Under the pieces are notes generated by a model. It worked only from the letters and a program-made list of their open reading frames with translations, was not told where the DNA came from and did no database searches. Positions 4,540-35,116 of a stretch of 49,223 bases of DNA are shown here, in pieces. Positions within the stretch are counted from its first letter, which is position 1. Every line of letters starts with the position of its first letter. The DNA comes from a phage: the sequence record NC_103567.1; one strand, given 5' to 3'. The position numbers and the translations under genes were made by a program.

Positions 4540-5107
4540 AATTATTATCCTCAACGCGCCGCCTGGTGCTGGCAAAGATACGATTGGCAAGATGATTTCT
4601 GTCTATTCGCCTGGTAAGCAATGCCGAATCATTAGCTTTAAAGAGCCAATGTTTGATATTGCATTAGCTATCCTGGGCAAAGAGAACTATCAGCGTTTCA
4701 TGCTGGCTTACGATTACAGAGAGCAGAAAGAAAGGCCGCAAACATTCCTGATGGGTATGTCACCGCGCGAGTTCATGATCTGGATTAGCGAGGATGTGAT
4801 CAAGCCTAAATTCGGTAAGGATTATTTCGGCGTAAGGTTTAATCAGAAAGTAAAAGAGTGTGATGCTCCTGTTGTTTGCACTGATGGCGGTTTTCCAGAT
4901 GAAATTATAGCGCTAATCAATGCTGGTAATGAGGTGAAGTTATGCCGCTTGCACCGCGACGGGTTCACGTTTGCAGGTGATAGCCGCAACTACATTCGAA
5001 TAAATCCATACTACCAGAAAAACGGATATAGCGAGCACGATTATAAATTGGTTGATAAACAACCAAATGTAACGGTAAAGGAAATCATTCGCGATCACCT
5101 TAAATAG
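4532..5107 (+). CDS. P-loop nucleotide kinase (deoxynucleoside monophosphate kinase-like)
   Basis: N-terminal IIILNAPPGAGKDT Walker A in the arrangement seen in phage dNMP kinases; 191 aa. Confidence 0.7.
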   Translation: MAKIIILNAPPGAGKDTIGKMISVYSPGKQCRIISFKEPMFDIALAILGKENYQRFMLAYDYREQKERPQTFLMGMSPREFMIWISEDVIKPKFGKDYFGVRFNQKVKECDAPVVCTDGGFPDEIIALINAGNEVKLCRLHRDGFTFAGDSRNYIRINPYYQKNGYSEHDYKLVDKQPNVTVKEIIRDHLK

Positions 5108-5123
5108 CACGAATTGCTAAAAC
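5103..5123 (+). promoter_or_regulatory. 21-bp motif, class II
   Basis: AATAGCACGAATTGCTAAAAC then AAGGCC...GGCCTT enclosing TGTTATAGT. Confidence 0.6.
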
Positions 5124-5187
5124 TTGCGCAAGGCCATTTGTTATAGTGGCCTTATTCAAGAGAAGCAACCAATCAGAGGAATAAACG

Positions 5188-5385
5188 ATGAAAATCAAAT
5201 GCACCAAATCAAACACAATGAATCTGACAGTTGGCGCGATTTACCATATGGAAGAAGGTGTAAACGGGTTTAGCCCAACTGTTACGCATGAGTACGGCGG
5301 TCACTTCTTCTTAAACGGTAAAGACGGATTATCTGTAAATGTTGGCTCTTTCGTTCTGGCAGAATTTGAGATCGTGGAGGAATAA
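5188..5385 (+). CDS. hypothetical protein
   Basis: 65-aa ORF with GAGGAA RBS. Confidence 0.55.
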   Translation: MKIKCTKSNTMNLTVGAIYHMEEGVNGFSPTVTHEYGGHFFLNGKDGLSVNVGSFVLAEFEIVEE

Positions 5386-5387
5386 AA

Positions 5388-5552
5388 ATGTTCTGGATTC
5401 ATTCGCCGCAAGGTTTGCTTTATGTGCCTGGCGTTGAATTTGAAGAACGACGCGACGGCGACACGGTAAACATCATAACTAAGGATTCAAAAGGCCACAC
5501 TCTTAAAACGTATGTTTTAAACACTCCGGTTAAGGTCGAAAAAGATGATTAA
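5388..5552 (+). CDS. hypothetical small protein (about 54 aa)
   Basis: GGAGGAA RBS and ATG directly after previous stop; hand-translated; coordinates approximate. Confidence 0.4.
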   Translation: MFWIHSPQGLLYVPGVEFEERRDGDTVNIITKDSKGHTLKTYVLNTPVKVEKDD

Positions 5553-5727
5553 ATTTATTGGTTTTGTGGCATTGCTTGTGTGCGGCATATGGCTTACTGA
5601 CAATGACACTTGGCAAAGTGCTGTTGGAGGATTACTTATTTTTCTTGCTGGTGGCATGGTTGGCAGTGATGACGCAACAAATAAGAACAAACTTTCGGAT
5701 CATTTACGCAGAGAGACAAAACGATGA
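5545..5727 (+). CDS. small membrane protein (two predicted helices)
   Basis: 60-aa ORF, hydrophobic segments FIGFVALLVCGIWL and LLIFLAGGMVG. Confidence 0.5.
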   Translation: MIKFIGFVALLVCGIWLTDNDTWQSAVGGLLIFLAGGMVGSDDATNKNKLSDHLRRETKR

Positions 5728-5969
5728 ATAGAAAAATGCTGGTACGCGCCTTTGCTAAGATTGCTAAAAGGTGGGGAGACTCTAACAAATCGCCTTACAC
5801 GTTTAGCCGCTACGGTTATAAAAATGCTCGCGACTGGGGTCGCTGCATTGCGGATAACTACAACTCCGAAATTCTGGAAGATTTCGCAAAGTGGATTGAT
5901 ACGCCTTTGAAGGATTGGTGTCAATTTGACTATGACTATTTCGCAGAAGAAGAAATTTCTTGTTTGTAA
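5724..5969 (+). CDS. hypothetical protein
   Basis: 81-aa ORF overlapping previous stop. Confidence 0.55.
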   Translation: MNRKMLVRAFAKIAKRWGDSNKSPYTFSRYGYKNARDWGRCIADNYNSEILEDFAKWIDTPLKDWCQFDYDYFAEEEISCL

Positions 5970-5981
5970 GGAGAATAAAAT

Positions 5982-6494
5982 ATGAAAGCTAAAAATGATT
6001 TTTATAACTACCTGACAAAAGGCCGCGACTATACCGTTTTGAATAGCATAGATACTCTTTACCTGGTTGTTGCTGATAATGGCGTTAGAGTTTGGCTTGA
6101 TAAAACTCTTTTCGAAAGCGAGCACCTAAGCAATGCAAAGCGGATCGCAGATGAAGCAAGTGCATTAGCAGAGCGTGAAAGAATTCGCGATATCGTTGCG
6201 GAGCAGGTGAGAAATTCATGTTCGCCTGGTGGCGATATCTTCAAATCAATGCGCGGTGAAATGACTGTTGGAATTCAAGATCGCGTAATTGCAAAATCAG
6301 TTGATTCTGTAATTGAGAATGCGAAATTCAATGCGTTGATTAACTCAGAGCCTAACGAATACGTCAAAGTGTTAGAGCAACTGCGTGAAGTGCTGAGAGT
6401 GCCGGAAGGTGAGAATATAGTGACTCATGCAAAGGTTGTAAGGACGTTGGCTGATGCTTTGCTTGACGTTTACCCAGGAATGAAGTGCAAATAG
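5982..6494 (+). CDS. hypothetical protein
   Basis: 170-aa ORF, AAGGAGAA RBS. Confidence 0.65.
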   Translation: MKAKNDFYNYLTKGRDYTVLNSIDTLYLVVADNGVRVWLDKTLFESEHLSNAKRIADEASALAERERIRDIVAEQVRNSCSPGGDIFKSMRGEMTVGIQDRVIAKSVDSVIENAKFNALINSEPNEYVKVLEQLREVLRVPEGENIVTHAKVVRTLADALLDVYPGMKCK

Positions 6495-24740: not shown

Positions 24741-27700
24741 ATGGTTAAAAATATGATAACTGGCAGTAAGGGCGGTTCATCTAAACCGCACACACCTGTT
24801 GAAATGGAAGATAACTTGATTTCAATTAACAGGATCAGAATTCTTTTAGCTGTTTCTGATGGTGAAGTTGATCCAGACTTTTCATTAAAAGATTTATATT
24901 TTGATGACGTTCCGGTTATGAATCAGGACGGGTCACTAAACTTTCAGAATGTTAAAGCCGAATTCAGACCAGGATCACAAACGCAAGATTATATTCAGGG
25001 ATTCACTGACACGGCGAGTGAGATTACTGTTGCTCGCGATCTGACGGCTGCAACTCCTTATATTATTTCCGTGACTAATAAAAACCTTTCCGCGATCCGT
25101 ATTAAAATTTTAATGCCGCGAGGGTTTACGCAGGAGGATAACGGAGATTTAACAGGCGTTCGCGTTGAATATGCTGTTGATATGGCTGTTGATGGTGCTG
25201 AATATAAAGAGGTTTTGTATGATGTAATTGAAGGTAAAACAATGAGCGGTTACGACAGAAGCCGCCGAATTGATTTACCTGCTTTCAATGAGCGTGTTTT
25301 ATTGCGCGTCCGTCGCCTGACAGATAGCACGTCAGCAAGGGTAACGGATCTGATTAAAATGCAAAGCTATGCTGAAGTTGTAGACGCTAAATTTCGTTAC
25401 CCACTGACTGGTTTAGTATATGTTGAGTTTGACAGCGAATTATTCCCTAATGCGTTGCCGAATATCAGCATTAAGAAAAAATGGAAAATCATTAATGTTC
25501 CGTCAAATTATGATCCTATTTCCCGCACTTACTCAGGGTCATGGGATGGAACCTGGAAAAAGGCATGGAGTAATAACCCTGCTTTTGTTCTGTATGATTT
25601 GATTACCAATCAGCGTTACGGACTCGATCAAAGAGAATTAGGCATCGCGCTTGATAAATGGAGCATTTACGAATGTGCGCAGTATTGCGATCAGATGGTT
25701 CCAGACGGTAAAGGCGGAACAGAGCCGCGCTATCTTTGCGACGTTGTGATCCAGAGCCAGGTAGAAGCGTATCAGCTTGTCCGTGATATTTGCTCAATCT
25801 TTCGAGGAATGAGTTTTTGGAACGGTGAAAGCCTTTCAATTGTGATCGATAAGCCGCGCGATGCGTCATACATCTTTACCAATGACAACGTGGTTAATGG
25901 TGAGTTTACTTACACGTTTGCCAGCGAGAAAAGCATGTACACGCAATGTAACGTGACTTTCGACGACGAACAAAACATGTATCAACAGGATGTTGAGGGA
26001 GTTTTCGAAACGGAGGCGGCGTTACGCTTTGGATATAACAGCACGTCAATAACTGCTATCGGTTGCACTCGACGTAGTGAGGCTAATCGCCGTGGGCGCT
26101 GGATTCTGAAAACCAACGTCAAGAGCACAACAGTAAACTTTGCTACTGGCCTGGAAGGTATGATCCCAACGGTAGGCGATGTAATTGTTGTTTCGGATAA
26201 CTTCTGGTCAAGCGCTTTGACGCTGAATCTATCAGGTCGATTGATGGAGGTTAACGGGTTGCAGGTGTTCACGCCGTTTAAGGTTGACGCAAGAGCGGGT
26301 GATCGCATTCTGGTAAATAAGCCGGATGGTAAGCCAGTTGGTCGAACCATTGCGCGTGTGAGCGATGACGGCAAAACGCTAACGCTAAACACAACGTTTG
26401 GCTTTGACGTTAAGCCGGATGCGGTTTTTGCAATTGAGCGCACAGATATAGCCCAGCAACGCTATGTAGTAACAGGAATAACTAAAGGTGATGGTGATGA
26501 AGAATTTGTATACAACATCACGGCTGTTGAATACGACGCTAACAAGTACGATGAAATTGATTATGGTGTGAACATTGATGATCGCCCTACTTCCATTGTG
26601 CAGCCTGACATTCTGCCAGCACCTGAAAACGTCAAGATCGAATCTTATTCGCGAGTTGTTCAGGGCGCGAGCGTGGAAACAATGCACGTTTCATGGGATA
26701 AAGTTGAATACGCAAGTCTGTATGAAATGCAGTGGCGAAAAGACAATGGCAACTGGAACAATACGCCGCGAACCGCGAACAAGGAAACGGAAGTTGAAGG
26801 TATTTATGCGGGTAACTATCACGTAAGGGTTAGATCTGTTGCGGCTAATGGTTCAGCGTCTGGATGGTCTGCAATAGTAAGCGCAGGATTAACCGGAAAA
26901 GTGGGAGAGCCGGAAAAGCCAATTAACCTTACAGCGTCAGATAATGAGGTTTTCGGAATTCGCGTAAAATGGGGTATGCCGGAGGGAAGCGGAGACACGG
27001 CCTATATAGAGTTGCATCAAGCGCCAAACGGTGCTGATGGTCATCCTATAGTTGACGAAGCAACGCTATTAACGCTTGTTCCGTTCCCGCAATATGAGTA
27101 TTGGCATTCAATACTGCCAGCGGGTCATGTTGTCTGGTACAAGGCAAGGGCAGTTGACAAAATCGGGAATGTGTCTGATTGGACTGACTTTGTGCGCGGC
27201 ATGGCTTCCGACGATACGAGCATTATCACGGATCATATTAAGGTCGATATTGAAAATTCTGATGGATATAAGTGGTTACAGGAAAACGCAATAAAGGCCA
27301 ATGATAAGATCCACAGCACAGCGGAATCAGTGATTGAAAACGCATTAGCGAATGATAAAGATGTGCGACGTATGCGAGTTGAAAACGGCAAGCGTAAAGC
27401 GGAGTTCTTGCAATCGCTGAAACTCATTGCAGACGAAACAGAAGCAAGGGTAACGCAGGTCACTCAAATGAGTGCGCAATTTGACGAGAAATTAACGGCT
27501 CAAAATAGCGAATTGAGAGAGGTAATTGCTAACAGCACTGAAACCATTAGCCAAAGGATTGATCAGCTTACAGCTACGTTTGAGAGCGAAATTGATGGTG
27601 TTAAGCAGGATATCAAAGCACAGATAACTGATGTTAACAAGGCAATCACCAATGAAGCGGAAGCGCGAGCGTCAGCGGATAGGGCGTTATCAACTCAAAT

Positions 27701-28517
27701 TGGTGATACCCAATCAGCGGTTAACCAGAAACTTGATTCTTGGGTTAATGCCGATAGCGTAGGCGCGATGTACGGCGTTAAGTTGGGGTTACGTTACAAC
27801 GGGCAGGAATATAGCGCTGGTATGGCTCTTTCCCTTGTTGGTGACGGATCAGGAGTTAAATCACAATTCCTGTTTGATGCTGGACGATTTGCGATCATAA
27901 ACAACCAACAGAGCGGAGGTTTTACACTACCGTTTGTTGTTGAGAATAATCAGGTGTTTATCAACAGCTTGCTTGTGAAAAATGGCTCTATTGGTAACGC
28001 TCAGATTGCGGATCAGATTAACTCTAACAACTGGAGCAGCGGCGCGGCTGGATGGATGATTAATAAGAATGGTTATGCTGAATTTAACCAGATAACGGTA
28101 AGGGGTACAGTGTACGCAAACGCCGGATCATTCACTGGTAACGTTTACGCTACTGATGGTTGGTTTAGGGGTACTGTTTACGCTGAAAAAATCGAGGGCG
28201 ACGTTGCAAAGGCTGTTGTGCTTGGGTTTAACGGATCGGTTCACATTCCGGCAGTAAACTACGACAGACACCTTGTGATTCCTTATGTTGGTTTGCATGG
28301 CTATACCTATTCAGGCGGTACGTGGGGCGGTGGTACTGTTTGGGTTGATTCATCATATGGCGGTCGCTTGGCTAACGTTCAAGCTACGGCTATGCATGGC
28401 GGTTCAAGTGGATACCTTCTGTTACCAGCGGGTAACGCAACAACGCTTTCATATGGTGGCAACCTGAACCACGCTAACGCGGTTCCAGTATTAACAATAC
28501 TGCTATTCAAAGCATAA
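24741..28517 (+). CDS. tail tip / host specificity protein (lambda J-like central fibre)
   Basis: 1258-aa ORF at the end of the tail block. Confidence 0.8.
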   Translation: MVKNMITGSKGGSSKPHTPVEMEDNLISINRIRILLAVSDGEVDPDFSLKDLYFDDVPVMNQDGSLNFQNVKAEFRPGSQTQDYIQGFTDTASEITVARDLTAATPYIISVTNKNLSAIRIKILMPRGFTQEDNGDLTGVRVEYAVDMAVDGAEYKEVLYDVIEGKTMSGYDRSRRIDLPAFNERVLLRVRRLTDSTSARVTDLIKMQSYAEVVDAKFRYPLTGLVYVEFDSELFPNALPNISIKKKWKIINVPSNYDPISRTYSGSWDGTWKKAWSNNPAFVLYDLITNQRYGLDQRELGIALDKWSIYECAQYCDQMVPDGKGGTEPRYLCDVVIQSQVEAYQLVRDICSIFRGMSFWNGESLSIVIDKPRDASYIFTNDNVVNGEFTYTFASEKSMYTQCNVTFDDEQNMYQQDVEGVFETEAALRFGYNSTSITAIGCTRRSEANRRGRWILKTNVKSTTVNFATGLEGMIPTVGDVIVVSDNFWSSALTLNLSGRLMEVNGLQVFTPFKVDARAGDRILVNKPDGKPVGRTIARVSDDGKTLTLNTTFGFDVKPDAVFAIERTDIAQQRYVVTGITKGDGDEEFVYNITAVEYDANKYDEIDYGVNIDDRPTSIVQPDILPAPENVKIESYSRVVQGASVETMHVSWDKVEYASLYEMQWRKDNGNWNNTPRTANKETEVEGIYAGNYHVRVRSVAANGSASGWSAIVSAGLTGKVGEPEKPINLTASDNEVFGIRVKWGMPEGSGDTAYIELHQAPNGADGHPIVDEATLLTLVPFPQYEYWHSILPAGHVVWYKARAVDKIGNVSDWTDFVRGMASDDTSIITDHIKVDIENSDGYKWLQENAIKANDKIHSTAESVIENALANDKDVRRMRVENGKRKAEFLQSLKLIADETEARVTQVTQMSAQFDEKLTAQNSELREVIANSTETISQRIDQLTATFESEIDGVKQDIKAQITDVNKAITNEAEARASADRALSTQIGDTQSAVNQKLDSWVNADSVGAMYGVKLGLRYNGQEYSAGMALSLVGDGSGVKSQFLFDAGRFAIINNQQSGGFTLPFVVENNQVFINSLLVKNGSIGNAQIADQINSNNWSSGAAGWMINKNGYAEFNQITVRGTVYANAGSFTGNVYATDGWFRGTVYAEKIEGDVAKAVVLGFNGSVHIPAVNYDRHLVIPYVGLHGYTYSGGTWGGGTVWVDSSYGGRLANVQATAMHGGSSGYLLLPAGNATTLSYGGNLNHANAVPVLTILLFKA

Positions 28518-28977: not shown

Positions 28978-30033
28978 ATGAGCGATTTTAAAGTTTACAC
29001 CTTTGACCAGTTAACCAACGGTGAATATCACGATCCGAAAGGCTGGGCGGCTGAATACGTTAGCGGTTCAAGCCTGGCAGAAATCTTTGCAAGTTGTCCG
29101 GCAGCGTGGAAATACAGACCACGCGAGGAAAGCAAAGCGCTTGTTTTCGGTACGCAGTCACACACAAACTTCCAGAGTAGTGAGCTATTCGCAAAAGAGT
29201 ACCGCAGAGCGCCAGCGCCGGAAGATTATGAAAACCTGATTACGAGCCAGGCAGCATTGGCAGCGAAATTAAAATCTTTTGGCCTGACTGGTACAAGCGG
29301 GAAAACGTATCCAGATCTGATTAAGATGATGGTTGATTGTGGTGAGGATCTAAATGTGCAATGGCTCATTGAAATGATCGCAGAAAGCCAGGCGCGAGCG
29401 GATAACGTTGAATTGGTTCCGGCTAAAGATTACGACGCTTGCGTTACCATGCGCCGCGTACTGGAAAGCATACCTGAACACAACGCTTGCATGAATAGCC
29501 CAACAGCACAACGCGAGCTATCAATTTTCGGAACTATCAAAGGCGTGAAAGTCAAAGTAAGGCTTGACCATGTTGATATTTGCAAAGATGTGCTTGCAAC
29601 GGTGATTTCCGGTTATGATGGTGAAGGTAATCCGGTATATGAAACAACGCGATTTGATGAAGCGATTGTGATCACGGATTATAAAACAACGTCAAGCGCT
29701 AACCCGTCAGAGTTTGCAAGGCTGGCATTCAATCACGGCTACTACTTGAAAATGGCATTGCAACATGACTTATTCAAGAAAGCGTATCCAGAAGAAACGC
29801 GCCCCGTAGTAGTCAGATTGCTGGCGCAGGAAAAGAAAGAGCCTTATTTACCGATTGCATACCGCATGACGGATGAACAATTGAAGATCGGACGACTTCA
29901 ATACATGAGCGTGATAAACCAGTTTGCAGAATGCCAGGTAAATGACGTTTGGCCTTCATACGCAAACGGAGAGCCGGAAATTGACCTTCAAACGCCTGAT
30001 TGGGTTCGTCGTCAATACAAAGGTTTTTTATAA
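28978..30033 (+). CDS. recombination exonuclease (PD-(D/E)xK, RecE/RecB-family-like)
   Basis: 351 aa; RLDHVD ... VITDYKTT fits a D...(D/E)xK nuclease core; GAGAGGA RBS; first gene of the exo-annealase-SSB module. Confidence 0.7.
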   Translation: MSDFKVYTFDQLTNGEYHDPKGWAAEYVSGSSLAEIFASCPAAWKYRPREESKALVFGTQSHTNFQSSELFAKEYRRAPAPEDYENLITSQAALAAKLKSFGLTGTSGKTYPDLIKMMVDCGEDLNVQWLIEMIAESQARADNVELVPAKDYDACVTMRRVLESIPEHNACMNSPTAQRELSIFGTIKGVKVKVRLDHVDICKDVLATVISGYDGEGNPVYETTRFDEAIVITDYKTTSSANPSEFARLAFNHGYYLKMALQHDLFKKAYPEETRPVVVRLLAQEKKEPYLPIAYRMTDEQLKIGRLQYMSVINQFAECQVNDVWPSYANGEPEIDLQTPDWVRRQYKGFL

Positions 30034-30053
30034 ATAGCACTTTTTGCTAAAAC
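30033..30053 (+). promoter_or_regulatory. 21-bp motif, class I
   Basis: AATAGCACTTTTTGCTAAAAC then 8-bp inverted repeat GATGCGTG...CACGCATC enclosing TGGTATACT. Confidence 0.6.
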
Positions 30054-30110
30054 TGCCATTCGATGCGTGGTATACTACACGCATCAACCAACGAGAGAGA
30101 GGAAACAAAA

Positions 30111-30401
30111 ATGGAACAGCAATTCAATGAGCAAGACATTCAAGATGTGCGCGATCACGTAGGCGGATTTGTAAACGCATTAGGAATTATGCAACGCCAG
30201 TTCTTGCGCGTAATTGATCCAAGCGAATCACCGGAAACTCTTGAATATGTTCGCAAGGTTGCATATTCGATTGATAACGTTGTGTTAACGGTTCTTCAAA
30301 TGGAAAATAACGAAGAACACCGCAAGATGATTAATCAGGCAAGTGAAATCATGATCCAGAATTTGATTGATTATCACAACGATAACGAAGAAAAGCATTA
30401 A
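30111..30401 (+). CDS. hypothetical acidic protein
   Basis: ORF track 30063-30401; internal ATG 30111 has GAGAGAGAGG RBS. Confidence 0.55.
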   Translation: MEQQFNEQDIQDVRDHVGGFVNALGIMQRQFLRVIDPSESPETLEYVRKVAYSIDNVVLTVLQMENNEEHRKMINQASEIMIQNLIDYHNDNEEKH

Positions 30402-30447
30402 TTAACACGGCGGCGCAAGCCGCCATTATTAAACCGGAGTCAATGAA

Positions 30448-31110
30448 ATGAAATTATCAGATCAAAACGCAAACGTAATTAAGGCATTGTTTGAGGCGCG
30501 TCAGTTATTCACAAAAGTAAAAAAGGATAAGCAAAATACGCACCTTAAAAATAAATATGCAACGCTTGACAGTGTTCTTGATGCAATTATGCCTGGGCTT
30601 ACTGATAAGGGTTTATTCCTGACGCAAGATCAGAAAGTCAGTGAAGATCTTAAATCAATGACTGTATTCACGCGATTCATTCATGTTGAATCAAATGAAT
30701 GGGTTGAATATAGTTTCACGTTGCCAATGCAGAAATTAGATCCACAAGGCGGCGGCTCAACAAACAGCTATGCGAGACGTTATGCTCTTTGCACGGCTCT
30801 TGGCCTGGCAACGGCTGACGATGACGCAAATCTTGCCACCAAAAACGCGCAGGATTGGAAAAAAGATCTTGATGTTTGCGATAACCTTACAGACTTGCAA
30901 GAAACGTTTAAAACGGCTTACAAGCAATCTGACGCGGCTAACAGGAGAATCATTAAAGAGCATTACGACAAGCTAAAAGCAAAAATGGAAATCGGAAAGG
31001 CTCGCGGTTTTAATCCGGCAGCGCCAGCGGCTAATGTTGCGAAGAAGGAAAATGTTGAAAACGAGCCGCAACAGGAAGTAAAATCTCAATCTATCACAGA
31101 CTTTGAATAA
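30448..31110 (+). CDS. erf: Erf-family single-strand annealing protein
   Basis: 220 aa; HLKNKYATLDSVL...KGLFLT and GGSTNSYARRYALCTALGLATADDD resemble conserved Erf segments recalled from P22 Erf. Confidence 0.7.
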   Translation: MKLSDQNANVIKALFEARQLFTKVKKDKQNTHLKNKYATLDSVLDAIMPGLTDKGLFLTQDQKVSEDLKSMTVFTRFIHVESNEWVEYSFTLPMQKLDPQGGGSTNSYARRYALCTALGLATADDDANLATKNAQDWKKDLDVCDNLTDLQETFKTAYKQSDAANRRIIKEHYDKLKAKMEIGKARGFNPAAPAANVAKKENVENEPQQEVKSQSITDFE

Positions 31111-31148
31111 ATTAACGTGGGGCGGTAACGCCCCAATAAGGATTAAGA

Positions 31149-31574
31149 ATGCACGTAATCACCGGAGAAATTCGCAAAGAGCCATTTGTAAAGCAAGGCG
31201 CAAACGGCACATTATACATCGTTGAGCTTTCGGAGTCATTTAAAGATCGTGAAGGTAATCGACAATACACCAATTACAAATTCTTCTTTAATGCTAAAAG
31301 CGACGGCATGAATAATTGGTATCGTGAAGCATTTCAGCAGGGTAAAGTTATTTCTGTATCATGCGATCAGTTACGCATTGATAGCCAGGAATACAACGGG
31401 CAGATTTATAACACATTGACGGCGGCGGGTTTTCCTAATCTTTTATTCAGTCAACGCGGAGAAGGGCAAGCGCCACAACAGCAGCAACCTCGACAGCAAC
31501 AACAAGCGCCACGCCAGCAAGCGCCTCAAAACAACGAGCCGCCTATGGATTTTGATGATGATATCCCATTCTGA
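31149..31574 (+). CDS. ssb: single-stranded DNA-binding protein
   Basis: 141 aa with Gln/Pro-rich linker and C-terminal acidic tail DFDDDIPF. Confidence 0.8.
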   Translation: MHVITGEIRKEPFVKQGANGTLYIVELSESFKDREGNRQYTNYKFFFNAKSDGMNNWYREAFQQGKVISVSCDQLRIDSQEYNGQIYNTLTAAGFPNLLFSQRGEGQAPQQQQPRQQQQAPRQQAPQNNEPPMDFDDDIPF

Positions 31575-31575
31575 T

Positions 31576-31606
31576 AAAAGAAAAGGAGCCGAAAGGCTCC
31601 TTTTTT
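31576..31606. terminator. bidirectional rho-independent terminator between convergent ssb and tail fibre genes
   Basis: GGAGCCGAAAGGCTCC hairpin flanked by an A-run upstream and a T-run downstream. Confidence 0.7.
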
Positions 31607-31607
31607 A

Positions 31608-33980
31608 TTACTTAGCAATCTGAATAAACATTGATTGCATTTCCTCGATCATCTTTTTCATTTCTGCTACTTCATTTTTTAGCTCATTGATTTCATCTTG
31701 TTGCTTCTGAATGGTTTCATTCTGCTTATCTGAATCATCAATCATTTCATTAATTGCGTTAACCAAAAGAGCAGTTACACCGCCATAGCTAACGCCTAAA
31801 ATTTCAGAATCAGATACCTTGTAAACCGCTTCCGGCAAAACAGTCTGAACATCTTGAGCTATTACGCCAGCTTCCTCAGAGTAGAAAGAATTTTCATCTT
31901 CTTCTAGGCTATTGCGCTTAAAGTAAGTGTATCCCTTAATTGATTTAACTTTATCTTTGGCGCTTTTAATCTCCTTTAGATTTGCCTTTAGTCGAATATC
32001 AGATGTATTAACCCATTGAACAGCGCTTGCATAACCAGCATCATTAAAAGTGTATGATGTACCTCTTACGTTTAGGTGAGCTTCGCAACCTCCAGCGCCA
32101 TATCTGGCAACATCTATACCAAAAACCCAATCATAACCCCACCTTACAACCTTAACAACGTTAACGGCTACATCATCGCCTGGAAGTTCAACAAGCATAC
32201 CAGCGGCGCGATCACGCCATGCAGTAAAAGCACCACCCTCAACATGCCCACCTATAAAGCAATTCGCACCACCCCTCCTAACACCTTCAACATAAGCAAA
32301 ACGTGCATCTTCTGGAGCAAATGATTGAATAGTTCTGTATGCAACATTGCCACTCTTTGTAAATGCAAACATCACTTGATTATCAGCAATAGCTTGAAGA
32401 ATGCCATCTCCATTTTGCCTAAATCCAGTATCAGTATCTCCAATTACTATAGAGTTACTACCAAGAGCATTACCAATCCCCCTACCGATTGTTATTGAGT
32501 TGTAATTCAGCGCGTTGCCACTTTCATCAAACTGATAATAGTTTGTGTCGCCACCTTCTCTAGTTACTTGAATAGTTGCCTTTGCAATCCCACCCTGAAT
32601 TTCGTTGTAAACCCTTGAATACGAAATCTGTACTCCTTCTGCATTTTTGTTTAACAAATAAAGTATGCCGGAGTTTGCAGAGTTTTTTTCTGTTAGGCTT
32701 ATTCCTCTAAAAACAGGAATGTCAGTTTCACCAATGCCAAAATTACTCCTTGCTTGCCCTATGCTTTGAGCGCCAGTGCCTCCTCGTTCGATGTGTAATG
32801 GTTTGATGTTTCCATAATCATCTTGAACACCCCACACACCATTGTTAGCTACAAGCATATTTAGTTTTCCATCAGGTGATTTTATGGAGTTAAAATCTCC
32901 TGGTGTTTCGCTAGTAATGCAAAAAACACCTTGCACACGAAAGTTTTTTCTTGCACCTTCAATATTTTCCGCACCAGTGCCGCCAGCACCAACAGAAAGA
33001 GCGGATGTGCTGTTATCGCTATTTCTTGCAACTCGCCACTCGCCGTTGTTTGCGATCCGTAATTCATAAGTCCATGCAGGGTTACGAAATGAGTTATAAT
33101 CACCTGGATTTTGCCCCTTAACTGAATTAACAGCCTCAACTTTCAGCGCCTCCCTTGCTAAATCTTTATTAGCAAGATCATTAAGATTCTGATCCTTATG
33201 CAGAAGGTTTTCAGGGTTAACTTGTTGTGCCCATTGGCGAGCTTCATCACGCGCAGTTTCAGCTCCAGCCTTTGCAGAGTCGGCGGCAATCTTTGATTGT
33301 TCAGCGGCAAGTTGTGATTCCTTTGCTGCATCGCGAGCATTAACAGCCTCGTTTTTAATTGATCCAATTTCAGCAACGGCGCTATCTTTTATTTGTTGCG
33401 TCTGCGTTTTTATTGCGTCAGTGTCTGCCTTAATCTGATTGGTTTCATAAACAGCAGCATCCTTAATCCGTTGAGTTTCTGCAATCGCAGTATCTTTAAT
33501 TTGCGTAGTCTCAGAAACAGCGGCATCCTTAATAGCTTGCGTGTCGTTTTTTAATTGCTCAGTTGCGGCGCGATCTGCATCCGTTTTTTGTGCGGAAGAC
33601 TCAGCGCGAGCAACAAGATCCTGTAATGTTTTAAGGTCAAAGTTTTTGAAGAATTCAATTGCTTCCTCAATAACCGTTTCTTTACTTTGGTAATATCTCA
33701 GCGTTTCCGCTACATCTTGCGCCATTCCATCGACAGTTAGCGAGTCATTCAACAGGATTACATAATTTCCGTTTGCTACTGGCTCGCCGTCAGTCTGGAT
33801 CGCTTTCATTTCCGTGTCGCTTACAATATCGCTGATAACCGCCAGCTTTAAAGGCGTGGTTAAAAAAACGATTGTTGCGCCAGTGCGAATAAGAGAAAGC
33901 GGCTCACGCCATTTTGTGCCAGTACCAGTGATAACGCCTTGTGCGTCCATTGCAGCCGTACCAGTGCGATATAAAGCCAT
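31608..33980 (-). CDS. tail fibre with C-terminal intramolecular chaperone (peptidase S74-like) domain
   Basis: 790 aa; internal ~11-aa repeats (IKDAAVSETTQIKDTAIAETQRIKDAAV...); C-terminal SDIRLKANLKEI...coiled coil resembles the auto-cleaving chaperone domain. Confidence 0.7.
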   Translation of the reverse strand: MALYRTGTAAMDAQGVITGTGTKWREPLSLIRTGATIVFLTTPLKLAVISDIVSDTEMKAIQTDGEPVANGNYVILLNDSLTVDGMAQDVAETLRYYQSKETVIEEAIEFFKNFDLKTLQDLVARAESSAQKTDADRAATEQLKNDTQAIKDAAVSETTQIKDTAIAETQRIKDAAVYETNQIKADTDAIKTQTQQIKDSAVAEIGSIKNEAVNARDAAKESQLAAEQSKIAADSAKAGAETARDEARQWAQQVNPENLLHKDQNLNDLANKDLAREALKVEAVNSVKGQNPGDYNSFRNPAWTYELRIANNGEWRVARNSDNSTSALSVGAGGTGAENIEGARKNFRVQGVFCITSETPGDFNSIKSPDGKLNMLVANNGVWGVQDDYGNIKPLHIERGGTGAQSIGQARSNFGIGETDIPVFRGISLTEKNSANSGILYLLNKNAEGVQISYSRVYNEIQGGIAKATIQVTREGGDTNYYQFDESGNALNYNSITIGRGIGNALGSNSIVIGDTDTGFRQNGDGILQAIADNQVMFAFTKSGNVAYRTIQSFAPEDARFAYVEGVRRGGANCFIGGHVEGGAFTAWRDRAAGMLVELPGDDVAVNVVKVVRWGYDWVFGIDVARYGAGGCEAHLNVRGTSYTFNDAGYASAVQWVNTSDIRLKANLKEIKSAKDKVKSIKGYTYFKRNSLEEDENSFYSEEAGVIAQDVQTVLPEAVYKVSDSEILGVSYGGVTALLVNAINEMIDDSDKQNETIQKQQDEINELKNEVAEMKKMIEEMQSMFIQIAK

Positions 33981-33991
33981 AATTTCACCTC

Positions 33992-34011
33992 ATAGCATTT
34001 TTTGTTAAAAT
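33992..34011 (+). promoter_or_regulatory. 21-bp motif variant (ATAGCATTTTTTGTTAAAAT), orphan copy pointing antisense to the primase gene
   Basis: Plus-strand orientation between two minus-strand genes; followed by CCATTTGTTACATG and GC hairpin CCCCGCCGAAGCGGGG. Confidence 0.45.
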
Positions 34012-34050
34012 AGGTCATGTAATTATGCTACAGCCATTTGTTACATGCAA

Positions 34051-34073
34051 TAAAAAACCCCGCCGAAGCGGGG
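34051..34073 (-). terminator. rho-independent terminator for the primase transcript
   Basis: On the minus strand CCCCGCTTCGGCGGGG followed by T6. Confidence 0.65.
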
Positions 34074-34140
34074 CATCGTTAACGACAACGAGAAGTCAAT
34101 GAAACAGATTCATCGAAAAGTGTTAGTAGCAGGATGAATA

Positions 34141-35082: not shown

Positions 35083-35116
35083 TAAAAAAAACTGGCACGA
35101 TGATAAACCATGCCAG
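35083..35116 (-). terminator. rho-independent terminator between the HTH gene and the primase gene
   Basis: On the minus strand CTGGCATGG...CGTGCCAG hairpin followed by a long T-run. Confidence 0.6.

Follow-up and report, generated by a model that had tools for sequence, protein, structure and literature searches.

Lateral tail fibres of the Drexlerviridae are encoded at a described locus, conservation among them is limited to the far N-terminus, and both the lateral fibres of the virion and their glycan binding belong to what, in the words of that study, "has never been directly demonstrated" (PMC8594841). In the Cronobacter members of the family, CRES7 and CRES9, the lateral fibre gp28 combines a coiled coil, a beta-helix and an ICA domain, and it determines host range in an O-antigen-dependent manner, with two residues altering that range (PMC12090712). 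The catalytic Ser–Lys dyad of such intramolecular chaperones has been defined (PMC8326128; PMC4690869), and in the T5 fibre pb1 the cleavage site is Thr1263|Ser1264 with Lys1269 (PMC4690869). In phage U136B, gene 52 is where the specificity for TolC and the adsorption phenotype of isogenic phages were mapped, and gene 57 was only implicated in adsorption by experimental evolution (PMC10304864); the phage also requires inner-core LPS on K-12 (PMC7260982).

The window, that is, the whole stretch of DNA analysed here (49,223 nucleotides, sequence record NC_103567.1), contains a fibre gene on its minus strand (Table 1). The ORF is genuine and starts with ATG, a GAGGTG ribosome-binding site is located 6 nt 5′ of the start codon, and the GC skew across the gene is negative. 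An exact-sequence look-up identified its product as the "putative tail fiber protein" of U136B, which matched PHROG 5481 ("tail fiber protein") with E=3.8e-287, and the other PHROG matches were "long tail fiber distal subunit" families. The 790-aa minus-strand ORF proposed in the preliminary description was thus confirmed, its identity as a tail fibre was borne out by PHROG 5481, the annotated orthologues and the exact match, and it is indeed a separate fibre gene, being distinct from the GpJ-like central fibre gene (24741–28517) and residing in the Drexlerviridae lateral-fibre locus. Gene 57, which had been annotated previously, encodes the lateral (side) tail fibre of U136B, a coliphage and T1-like siphovirus.

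Table 1 Features of the lateral fibre gene of U136B and of its surroundings (window coordinates)
Feature	Position	Strand	Remark
Lateral tail fibre CDS, 790 aa + stop	31608..33980	-	gene 57 / QRV71257.1, GenBank MW598258
N-terminal virion-attachment (anchor) domain, residues 1–125, conserved	33606..33980	-	
Predicted alpha-helical (trimeric) coiled-coil stalk, residues 126–254	33219..33605	-	
Eight [I/L]K-headed units, residues 143–218	33327..33554	-	"11-residue repeats" of the preliminary description
GGTGA module copy 1, residues 290–349, ends GGTGAxxIxxARxNF	32934..33113	-	
GGTGA module copy 2, residues 358–416	32733..32909	-	
Distal shaft and tip in the mature fibre, beta-rich, residues 417–659, presumed receptor-binding	32004..32732	-	
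Predicted autoproteolytic scissile bond, codons Thr659–Ser660	32001..32006	-	
Intramolecular chaperone (Peptidase S74 / ICA) domain, residues 660–790, 131 aa, 14.8 kDa	31611..32003	-	
Codon Lys688, parallel evolved K688N, GYTYFKRN strand of the S74 domain	31915..31917	-	PMC10304864 Table 2
Helix / coiled coil ending the chaperone domain, residues 732–789	31614..31787	-	AF2 (helix 133–190 in the numbering of the modelled segment) and heptad register
Bidirectional terminator hairpin separating ssb from the fibre gene, which converge	31581..31604	.	annotated on both strands in Stevie
Intrinsic-terminator-like hairpin GCCCCGC-TTCG-GCGGGGT + T6, 3′ of the primase gene and 5′ of the fibre gene	34057..34074	-	
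Candidate promoter TTGCAT-17 nt-CATAAT directly 5′ of the fibre gene	34022..34050	-	read from sequence

The gene is flanked on one side by recombination genes (exo/erf/ssb) and on the other by the primase/helicase genes, as in annotated relatives; this position matches the described Drexlerviridae locus (PMC8594841), and the order exo–erf–ssb, fibre, primase-regulator, helicase is common to SorkZaugg, Sazh, phSE-2, Stevie, TLS and DanielBernoulli. It had also been described as convergent to the late operon. The gene does converge on the plus-strand block, but the adjoining genes are exo/erf/ssb (28978–31574), located after the structural genes, and not the structural genes themselves. On the 5′ side, both hexamers of the candidate promoter and their spacing were invariant in six phages, while the spacer and the downstream leader diverged. 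This promoter was not called by the promoter scanner, where it fell below the threshold with 8/12; the sole promoter called near the fibre start (34008..33979) was disregarded because it overlaps the start codon itself. The hairpin after the primase gene kept its stem in six phages with a varying loop (TTCG versus TAAG), and Sazh and Stevie have a terminator annotated at its counterpart.

A C-terminal chaperone domain of ~130 residues had been suggested for the protein, and a search with the S74 profile was set beforehand as its test. The search was positive: Peptidase_S74 (PF13884) matched residues 660–720 over the full profile (1–58 of 58) with E=9.8e-14 and 51.8 bits (cut-off 22), and the isolated C-terminus gave E=5.8e-14. 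The domain, which begins with SDIRLK at residue 660, comprises the last 131 residues of the protein and follows ~215 residues predicted with high confidence to be all-beta and Mu/S16 fibre-like. Ser660 and Lys665 were invariant in all the 66 homologues, as were D661 and R663, and the two residues align with the catalytic dyads of MyRF, T5 pb1 and K1F endoNF, the alignment with MyRF pairing them with (S587A)DLRAK592 and that with S16 gp37 with SSDRRIK. The conserved dyad, together with the profile match, upheld the suggested domain, and we infer from the sequence that autocleavage occurs at Thr659–Ser660. The C-terminal part also matched S16 gp37 (6f45_A, E=6.8e-18, residues 659–764); the model of the 6f45 crystal includes only 68–72 of the construct's 204 residues, which is consistent with a removed chaperone. 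The best fold match of the domain in Foldseek was the MyRF ICA (7DC3), and the phage chaperones 3GW6 and 4UW8 were not retrieved with the monomer models used, whose mean pLDDT was 74–78 for an obligate trimer. In the monomer AF2 model the terminal helix is 58 residues long with a pLDDT of 89–96, and it contains five clean heptads (a = I757, I764, V771, I778, F785; d = Q760, L767, M774, M781, I788). No other domain was detected: the NCBIfam scan of the whole protein gave no match, and Pfam at E<=10 with five sub-segments yielded nothing credible besides S74, the terminal helix giving generic coiled-coil noise. Two arginines, R626 and R639, sit upstream of the predicted cleavage site; in known chaperones, a folding-sensor Arg comes from the neighbouring chain (R897 in endoNF, R1250 in T5).

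The changes found in gene 57 of experimentally evolved U136B are K688N and three frameshifting duplications of 82–86 bp, published in a paper where the chaperone/S74 domain, the cleavage and the repeats go unmentioned (PMC10304864). All four reported variants lie inside the 393 nt chaperone-coding part, which makes up 16.6% of the gene; if variants are placed uniformly and independently, the chance of this clustering is p=7.6e-4 for the four variants and 4.6e-3 when just the three that evolved are counted. The duplications, at 31,648, 31,700 and 31,718, all map to the terminal helix. K688 was kept in 65 of 66 homologues and aligned adjoining Y615/Y617 of MyRF, the residues lining the cleavage site. 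The search for direct repeats 82 or 86 nt apart at the three duplication sites revealed none that was convincing, just unrelated 7-nt repeats. Depending on the flank copied, a duplication would truncate the protein after residue 755, 760 or 778, or after 783 or 787, or leave it unchanged. As the evolved changes map to a domain expected to be absent from the mature virion, they suggest an altered maturation or presence of the fibre, and we concluded that they probably act on fibre maturation and not on receptor contact. That they cripple the chaperone-driven assembly, and that rough K-12 hosts favour virions with few or no fibres, has about an even chance in our judgement; it would have a parallel in the stf frameshift of laboratory lambda. 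K688N was fixed in two populations, where the frameshifts then reached 64–77%, and their rise on a fixed K688N is awkward if K688N alone was already null. We rank crippled assembly as more likely than an S74 domain retained or regulated on the virion.

According to this latter alternative, which we regard as unlikely, the S74 domain stays on the Tlsvirus fibre, where it caps the tip or is itself the true distal end, or its removal is regulated, and it would participate directly in adsorption, for example, to inner-core LPS, so that K688N and the terminal-helix changes tune receptor contact directly. It would explain why all the published adaptive or polymorphic gene-57 changes, which are associated with faster adsorption, lie in the domain, and why the TLS "78 kDa structural protein" raised in the discussion of the gene-57 orthologue (PMC11447400) is nearer to the uncleaved Stf (74.1 kDa) than to its cleaved form (residues 1–546; ~60 kDa as a rough, not computed estimate). 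A report on Alteromonas phage tail fibres also mentions chaperones that persist as transient caps (PMC10579305). However, the assignment of the TLS band was not MS-based and fibres often migrate anomalously, while the invariance of the Ser–Lys dyad in every homologue argues that cleavage is under selection. Furthermore, an uncleaved chaperone-bearing fragment of the T5 fibre fails to compete for infection, which means that the chaperone masks the binding tip, and frameshifts that scramble the terminal helix resemble damage rather than tuning.

Upstream of the cleavage site, AF2 predicted an all-beta structure with a pLDDT of 84–95 for residues ~445–650, and residues 411–659 share 45–70% aa identity with L-shaped tail fibres from T5-like Salmonella phages. 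The meaningful Foldseek matches of residues 255–659 (prob 1.00) were 5yvq, a tail fibre from Mu that ranked first, and 6f45, the tip of S16 gp37 (33–35% identity); the remaining matches were discarded as beta-propeller noise (TM ~0.09). The ~70 residues before the cleavage site thus resemble a tip that carries gp38 in S16, and some Tlsviruses, DanielBernoulli among them, have extra genes 3′ of the fibre gene, including one for a "putative sugar-binding protein", which would fit a mature tip that is an adaptor alone and leaves specificity to a separate small gp38-like adhesin, as in T2/S16-type fibres. We consider such an arrangement very unlikely in U136B, where at this locus no gp38-like gene was seen adjoining the fibre gene, and the bidirectional terminator and the convergent ssb directly follow it, which leaves no space for an adhesin gene downstream.

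At the other end of the protein, residues 1–172 match the N-termini of depolymerases from Klebsiella Drexlerviridae (Webervirus; 7vyv, 7vz3 and 7lzj) with E~1e-49, and many phage records match the fibre gene over the first ~1016–1041 nt alone. The gene therefore fits the Drexlerviridae lateral-fibre pattern of a conserved far N-terminus joined to an unrelated mosaic remainder. It is most improbable that the protein itself is an enzymatic tailspike, that is, a capsule or O-antigen depolymerase like these Klebsiella proteins, since the similarity ends after the anchor and the helical bundle, neither Pfam (also with sub-segments at E<=10) nor NCBIfam gave a glycosidase, lyase or beta-helix family match, the distal structural matches (prob 1.00) were the Mu and S16 fibres and not right-handed beta-helix enzymes, and the PHROG matches are distal subunits of long tail fibres; a DpK2-like tailspike depolymerase was likewise rejected, as Pfam and NCBIfam gave no catalytic beta-helix domain and only the N-terminal anchor is in common.

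DpK2 has a homologous N-terminal part, which cryo-EM showed as an "extended triple helical bundle" (PMC8552709). Residues 104–254 of the U136B protein contain no Pro and two Gly, A/E/K/Q/D/T make up 68% of them, and the stalk shows periodicities at lags 7, 11 and 18. About eight imperfect 11-aa repeats had been noticed here, and the repetition is real and non-random: the BLOSUM autocorrelation at lag 11 had z=6.8 versus 500 shuffles, and Tandem Repeats Finder detected a 33-nt period in 3.2 copies (33428–33533, score 98). The number of units also proved to be eight, with I/L-K heads at residues 143, 150, 161, 172, 183, 190, 197 and 208, but their lengths (7, 11, 11, 11, 7, 7, 11 and 11 residues) define three heptads and five hendecads, of which three are almost the same. 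Beyond them, three further degenerate 11-residue frames lacking the IK head reach ~residue 251. Such mixed hendecad and heptad repeats are predicted to form a coiled-coil stalk. A second repeat, the tandemly duplicated "GGTGA" module of ~60 aa, had been overlooked in the preliminary description. The local alignment of its two copies scored 117 (shuffles: 27.8 ± 5.4); it was this direct alignment that disclosed the duplication, as self-BLASTP of the protein returned no internal repeats. The homologues contain 0–3 GGTGA modules and one to four leading 11-mers, and the differing GGTGA copy number accounts for their length classes of 712 aa versus 779–790 aa. The varying counts of both elements provide a small, tidy example of a fibre changing its length by whole structural units.

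We propose as a quite probable explanation of the whole that gene 57 encodes a lateral fibre with a self-removed C-terminal S74 chaperone, that the tip of the fibre contacts a glycan, and that the evolved changes hit maturation. We infer that three chains assemble, and the N-terminal ~125-residue domain would fix the fibre to the tail. Residues ~126–254 would build the trimeric alpha-helical coiled-coil stalk from hendecad and heptad units, followed by the two GGTGA modules and then by the beta-rich shaft and tip up to residue 659. Folding may nucleate at the C-terminus via the 131-residue S74 chaperone, the terminal helices of which would associate into a trimeric coiled coil. When the beta-structure upstream has folded correctly, Lys665 would activate Ser660 to cut the Thr659–Ser660 bond, and the 14.8-kDa chaperone would depart leaving a mature 70.9-kDa fibre with an exposed tip. 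The tip may make an accessory first contact by binding reversibly to a surface glycan of the O-antigen or LPS type, while irreversible TolC binding would be accomplished by the GpJ-like gene 52 protein. The role of likely host-range determinant, assigned earlier to the fibre, is plausible but second in rank, as TolC specificity maps to gene 52 (PMC10304864).

The chaperone-bearing lateral fibre as such was already known, and finding one here is ordinary because orthologues carry PF13884 or chaperone annotations and the Drexlerviridae locus is described. For annotation the value is nil, given that the database entry already names a tail fibre protein and the architecture is already published for Drexlerviridae. 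The sole new point is that the published mutations all lie inside the chaperone domain. U136B serves as a model in work that uses phage to turn bacteria away from antibiotic efflux via TolC, and its evolved "tail fibre 57" mutations were previously interpreted as host-recognition changes; the maturation reading, if true, alters the interpretation of the U136B "phage training" results.

Among the known systems, SorkZaugg gp27, Stevie gp27, Sazh gp58 and TLS Stf agree with U136B in locus, orientation and flanking terminators. The gene of the Citrobacter phage SorkZaugg is 94.6% identical at the nt level over its whole length, and the orthologues in the Citrobacter phages Stevie and Sazh are annotated with "peptidase-like domain; PF13884" and "C-terminal chaperone domain", respectively. 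The distal two-thirds are mosaic among relatives, as gene coverage of at least 80% was found in only 14 of 121 matching phage records; Stf of the Escherichia phage TLS (674 aa) has residues 1–420 in common (74% aa) but differs in its tip, and its S74 domain is divergent (SDVRIK). For the C-terminal part, S16 gp37 (PDB 6F45) is the closest relative with a solved structure, although S16 belongs to the T4-like myoviruses and the tip of its gp37 bears the separate adhesin gp38, and none follows the U136B fibre gene. The endosialidase endoNF of K1F (3GW6) and the MyRF ICA (7DC3) belong to the same Pfam family, with the dyads S911/K916 and S587/K592, spaced as S660/K665 and aligned with them, and their C-terminal triple coiled coil drives trimerisation; their identity to gp57 is ~20–22% and the upstream proteins, a sialidase and a transcription factor, are unrelated. 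Although T5 pb1 itself was absent from the sequence and fold search matches, it resembles gp57 in being a siphovirus lateral fibre with a C-terminal chaperone of ~131–134 residues ending in a coiled coil, which in gp57 would be trimeric as in T5, and the T–S…K spacing of its cleavage site equals that of the predicted site in gp57. In contrast, gp57 is shorter (790 versus 1396 aa), its N-terminal anchor differs, and its monomer model has a terminal helix of 58 versus ~24 residues and lacks the long "tentacle" hairpins of the T5 type. The specificity residues of CRES7/CRES9 gp28, compared here by its description, are located in the mature beta-helix/tip, whereas the U136B changes are in the chaperone domain.

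An exact-sequence look-up identified the product of the fibre gene (gene 57) as QRV71257.1, "putative tail fiber protein [Escherichia phage U136B]". Its start codon has a ribosome-binding site, GAGGTG, 6 nt upstream, and GC skew is negative throughout the gene. The U136B backbone is 92–97% identical to Tlsvirus genomes (Sazh, phSE-5, TLS; Drexlerviridae, Tempevirinae), and the nearest fibre gene in the phage collection is gp27 of Citrobacter phage SorkZaugg (94.6% nucleotide identity, full length). By megablast, at least 80% of the fibre gene was covered in just 14 of the 121 matching records, and many matching records aligned to its first ~1,016–1,041 nt alone. Among the database oddities, which include the phage records OL539462.1 and OR786094.1, the BlueShadow fibre gene is labelled "putative DNA primase". 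Identity of ~93% to the enterobacterial Tlsvirus backbone is also seen in the record of "Streptococcus phage MBBL140" and in several records labelled "Campylobacter" phage, pointing to mislabelled hosts or to contamination.

Features of the fibre gene and its surroundings
Feature	Coordinates	Strand	Details
Bidirectional terminator hairpin	31581-31604	both	in the 33-nt gap between ssb and fibre gene; both strands annotated in Stevie
Fibre CDS	31608..33980	-	sole long ORF at the site; ATG start; 790 aa
Tandem GGTGA modules	32733-33113	-	~60 residues each, ends GGTGAxxIxxARxNF
[I/L]K-headed repeat array	33327-33554	-	eight units
TTGCAT-17 nt-CATAAT promoter-like site	34050..34022	-	immediately after the 34074..34057 hairpin
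Strong terminator-like hairpin	34074..34057	-	3′ of primase gene, upstream of fibre gene
Terminator-like hairpin, CTGGCA...TGCCAG + T8	35084-35116	-	regulator/primase intergenic region, upstream of fibre gene, same strand

The structural genes are followed by gene 52 (24741–28517) and exo-erf-ssb (to 31574), then by the minus-strand fibre, primase and regulator genes and a plus-strand helicase gene. The preliminary description had the fibre gene transcribed from its own region and convergently to the late operon. Given this gene order, the convergence holds, but the partner is the recombination module exo-erf-ssb, not the late operon directly. In six Tlsviruses the stem of the hairpin behind the primase gene, both hexamers of the promoter-like site and their 17-nt spacing are unchanged, while the hairpin loop, spacer and leader diverge; this conservation supports the view that the fibre gene is probably its own transcription unit. 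An evolved U136B isolate was reported to carry an intergenic change, (A)8→7 at 35,091 (PMC10304864); it lies precisely within the T8 tract of the farther upstream hairpin and could have changed read-through. Elsewhere in the locus, the fibre gene of DanielBernoulli is followed by three additional genes (L002, its locus, 4570–6016), one labelled "putative sugar-binding protein", and in TLS the ssb–stf gap is 299 bp without an annotated gene (locus L006, 1263–1560), compared with the 33 nt filled by the terminator in U136B. A 112-aa ORF (30063–30401, plus strand) in the exonuclease/erf interval corresponds to SorkZaugg gp24 and TLS gp53, which are called "tail (length) tape measure protein", a label made implausible by the size of the ORF and its place in the recombination module.

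The stalk had been described as about eight 11-residue repeats; the number is right, the length only in part. The [I/L]K heads at residues 143, 150, 161, 172, 183, 190, 197 and 208 open units of 7, 11, 11, 11, 7, 7, 11 and 11 residues, i.e. five 11-mers and three heptads, and three more 11-residue frames without the IK head extend to residue 251. The BLOSUM autocorrelation at lag 11 (z = 6.8 vs 500 shuffles) places the repeat signal far beyond chance; secondary peaks occur at lags 7, 18, 22 and 36, and TRF detected a 33-nt period in 3.2 copies at 33428–33533. Residues 104–254 contain no Pro, two Gly and 68% A/E/K/Q/D/T, and the mixed 11/7 periods with Ile/Ala/Thr at 4-4-3 spacing suggest that this stalk is an α-helical coiled coil, consistent with the "extended triple helical bundle" of the homologous N-terminal region in Klebsiella depolymerase DpK2 (PMC8552709) and with the coiled coil in the model of a Cronobacter Drexlerviridae lateral fibre (PMC12090712). 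Among 120 homologues the array comprises 1–4 leading 11-mers, then a near-constant 7-7-11 motif, and the 11-7-7-11 block is doubled in one. Residues 290–349 and 358–416, overlooked in the preliminary description, are tandem copies of one module (copy-to-copy alignment score 117 vs 27.8 ± 5.4 for shuffles). Homologues carry 0–3 of these GGTGA modules, which explains the 712-aa and 779–790-aa length classes. Both stalk elements change by whole units among the homologues, resulting in discrete protein lengths.

Residues 1–172 match the N-termini of Klebsiella Drexlerviridae depolymerases (E~1e-49) and are a family-wide attachment domain; relatedness of Drexlerviridae lateral fibres is confined to the far N-terminus (PMC8594841). 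Residues 411–659 share 45–70% amino acid identity with L-shaped tail fibres of ~110–125-kb T5-like Salmonella phages, and over short distal stretches there is similarity to P2 gpH and to the distal fibres of T4-like phages as well. The AF2 model of residues 255–659 is confident (pLDDT 84–95) and all-beta from ~445 onward, with the Mu tail fibre (5yvq) and the tip of S16 gp37 as its meaningful structure matches. Pfam, NCBIfam and a structure search of the distal part gave no indication of an enzymatic beta-helix.

The proposed C-terminal chaperone was borne out by the profile search: PF13884 (Peptidase_S74, "Chaperone of endosialidase") matched residues 660–720 over all 58 profile positions (E = 9.8e-14; 51.8 bits, cut-off 22 bits), and Pfam, run on the protein and its sub-segments at E ≤ 10, returned no domain besides it. 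In an alignment of 66 homologues S660, D661, R663 and K665 never vary, not even in the DanielBernoulli fibre, just 21% identical in this region. The final 58 residues are predicted as a single helix (pLDDT 89–96) with five clean heptads, in agreement with the coiled-coil ending described earlier. These features support the reading of the domain as a removable S74 chaperone, whose loss would reduce the protein from 85.8 kDa to 70.9 kDa (chaperone, 14.8 kDa). The nearest solved relative of the C-terminal part is S16 gp37 (6f45_A; E = 6.8e-18, residues 659–764), and its crystal chains have 68–72 residues modelled of a 204-residue construct, which fits a chaperone already gone. It is less likely that the S74 domain stays functional on the virion, although a TLS "78 kDa structural protein", whose assignment is loose, would be compatible with this: TLS Stf is 74.1 kDa uncleaved and, by a rough estimate, ~60 kDa when cleaved.

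U136B was evolved on E. coli by Burmeister et al. (2023; PMC10304864), who reported in gene 57 K688N (31,917 C>A; three of five isolates, 100% in two populations), frameshifting insertions of 86 bp at 31,718 (63.6%) and 82 bp at 31,700 (77.2%), and an 86-bp duplication at 31,648 in 15.9% of ancestral-stock reads; chaperone, S74 and cleavage are nowhere mentioned in that paper. All four changes fall in the 393 nt encoding the chaperone (16.6% of the gene; p = 7.6e-4 for four events, 4.6e-3 for the three evolved ones, assuming uniformity and independence). K688, in the strand GYTYFKRN, is shared by 65 of the 66 homologues and in a weak alignment to MyRF adjoins Y615/Y617, aromatic residues lining the MyRF cleavage site. 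The three duplications all map to the terminal helix, and the duplicated proteins are predicted to be cut after residue 755, 760 or 778, or else 783 or 787, depending on the flank duplicated; under the choice giving 783/787 the 31,648 duplication leaves the protein unchanged. These distinct 82–86-bp duplications all sit in a ~70-bp stretch at the gene's 3′ end. In 31618–31751 no microhomology at the duplication spacing was found, just the 7-nt TCTGAAT at 31619, 31706 and 31729; a 24-nt sequence also recurs imperfectly at a distance of 110 nt.

The sole changed part of gene 57 is thus the domain expected to be missing from mature virions. Read most simply, the mutations would alter or eliminate the maturation that depends on the chaperone. 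On K-12 without O-antigen, reduced or absent lateral fibres would then be neutral or advantageous. Laboratory lambda lost its side fibres via an stf frameshift. The two populations in which frameshifts later rose were also those with K688N at fixation, an observation awkward for a simple null model. U136B requires inner-core LPS besides TolC (PMC7260982). Gene 52 (plus strand) encodes a 1258-aa GpJ-like central tail fibre, whose published adaptive substitutions are all in the last ~70 residues (1186–1243; PMC10304864); in TolC-using Tlsviruses its C-terminal extension was proposed to replace a separate receptor-binding protein (PMC8594841).

The observation is confirmed, with the repeat description corrected, and its interpretation is supported, but the feature is not new: the deposited entry already names a tail fibre protein, the Stevie and Sazh orthologues are annotated "peptidase-like domain; PF13884" and "C-terminal chaperone domain", respectively, and a published Drexlerviridae lateral fibre likewise has an ICA domain and depends on O-antigen (PMC12090712), so the finding is correct and ordinary. 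The added value is modest, namely a testable re-reading of the published U136B evolution data. A TLS re-annotation ties the fibre orthologue to T5 pb1 by HHpred (PMC11447400), and the Thr659|Ser660...Lys665 arrangement at the predicted scissile bond is the same as Thr1263|Ser1264...Lys1269 of T5 pb1 (PMC4690869). HMMER aligned TSDIRLK of the fibre to P(S587A)DLRAK592 of MyRF, where S587/K592 is the experimentally proven dyad, equivalent to S911/K916 of endoNF (PMC8326128), and the predicted terminal helix is in keeping with the triple coiled coil at the end of the T5 and MyRF domains, where it drives trimerisation.
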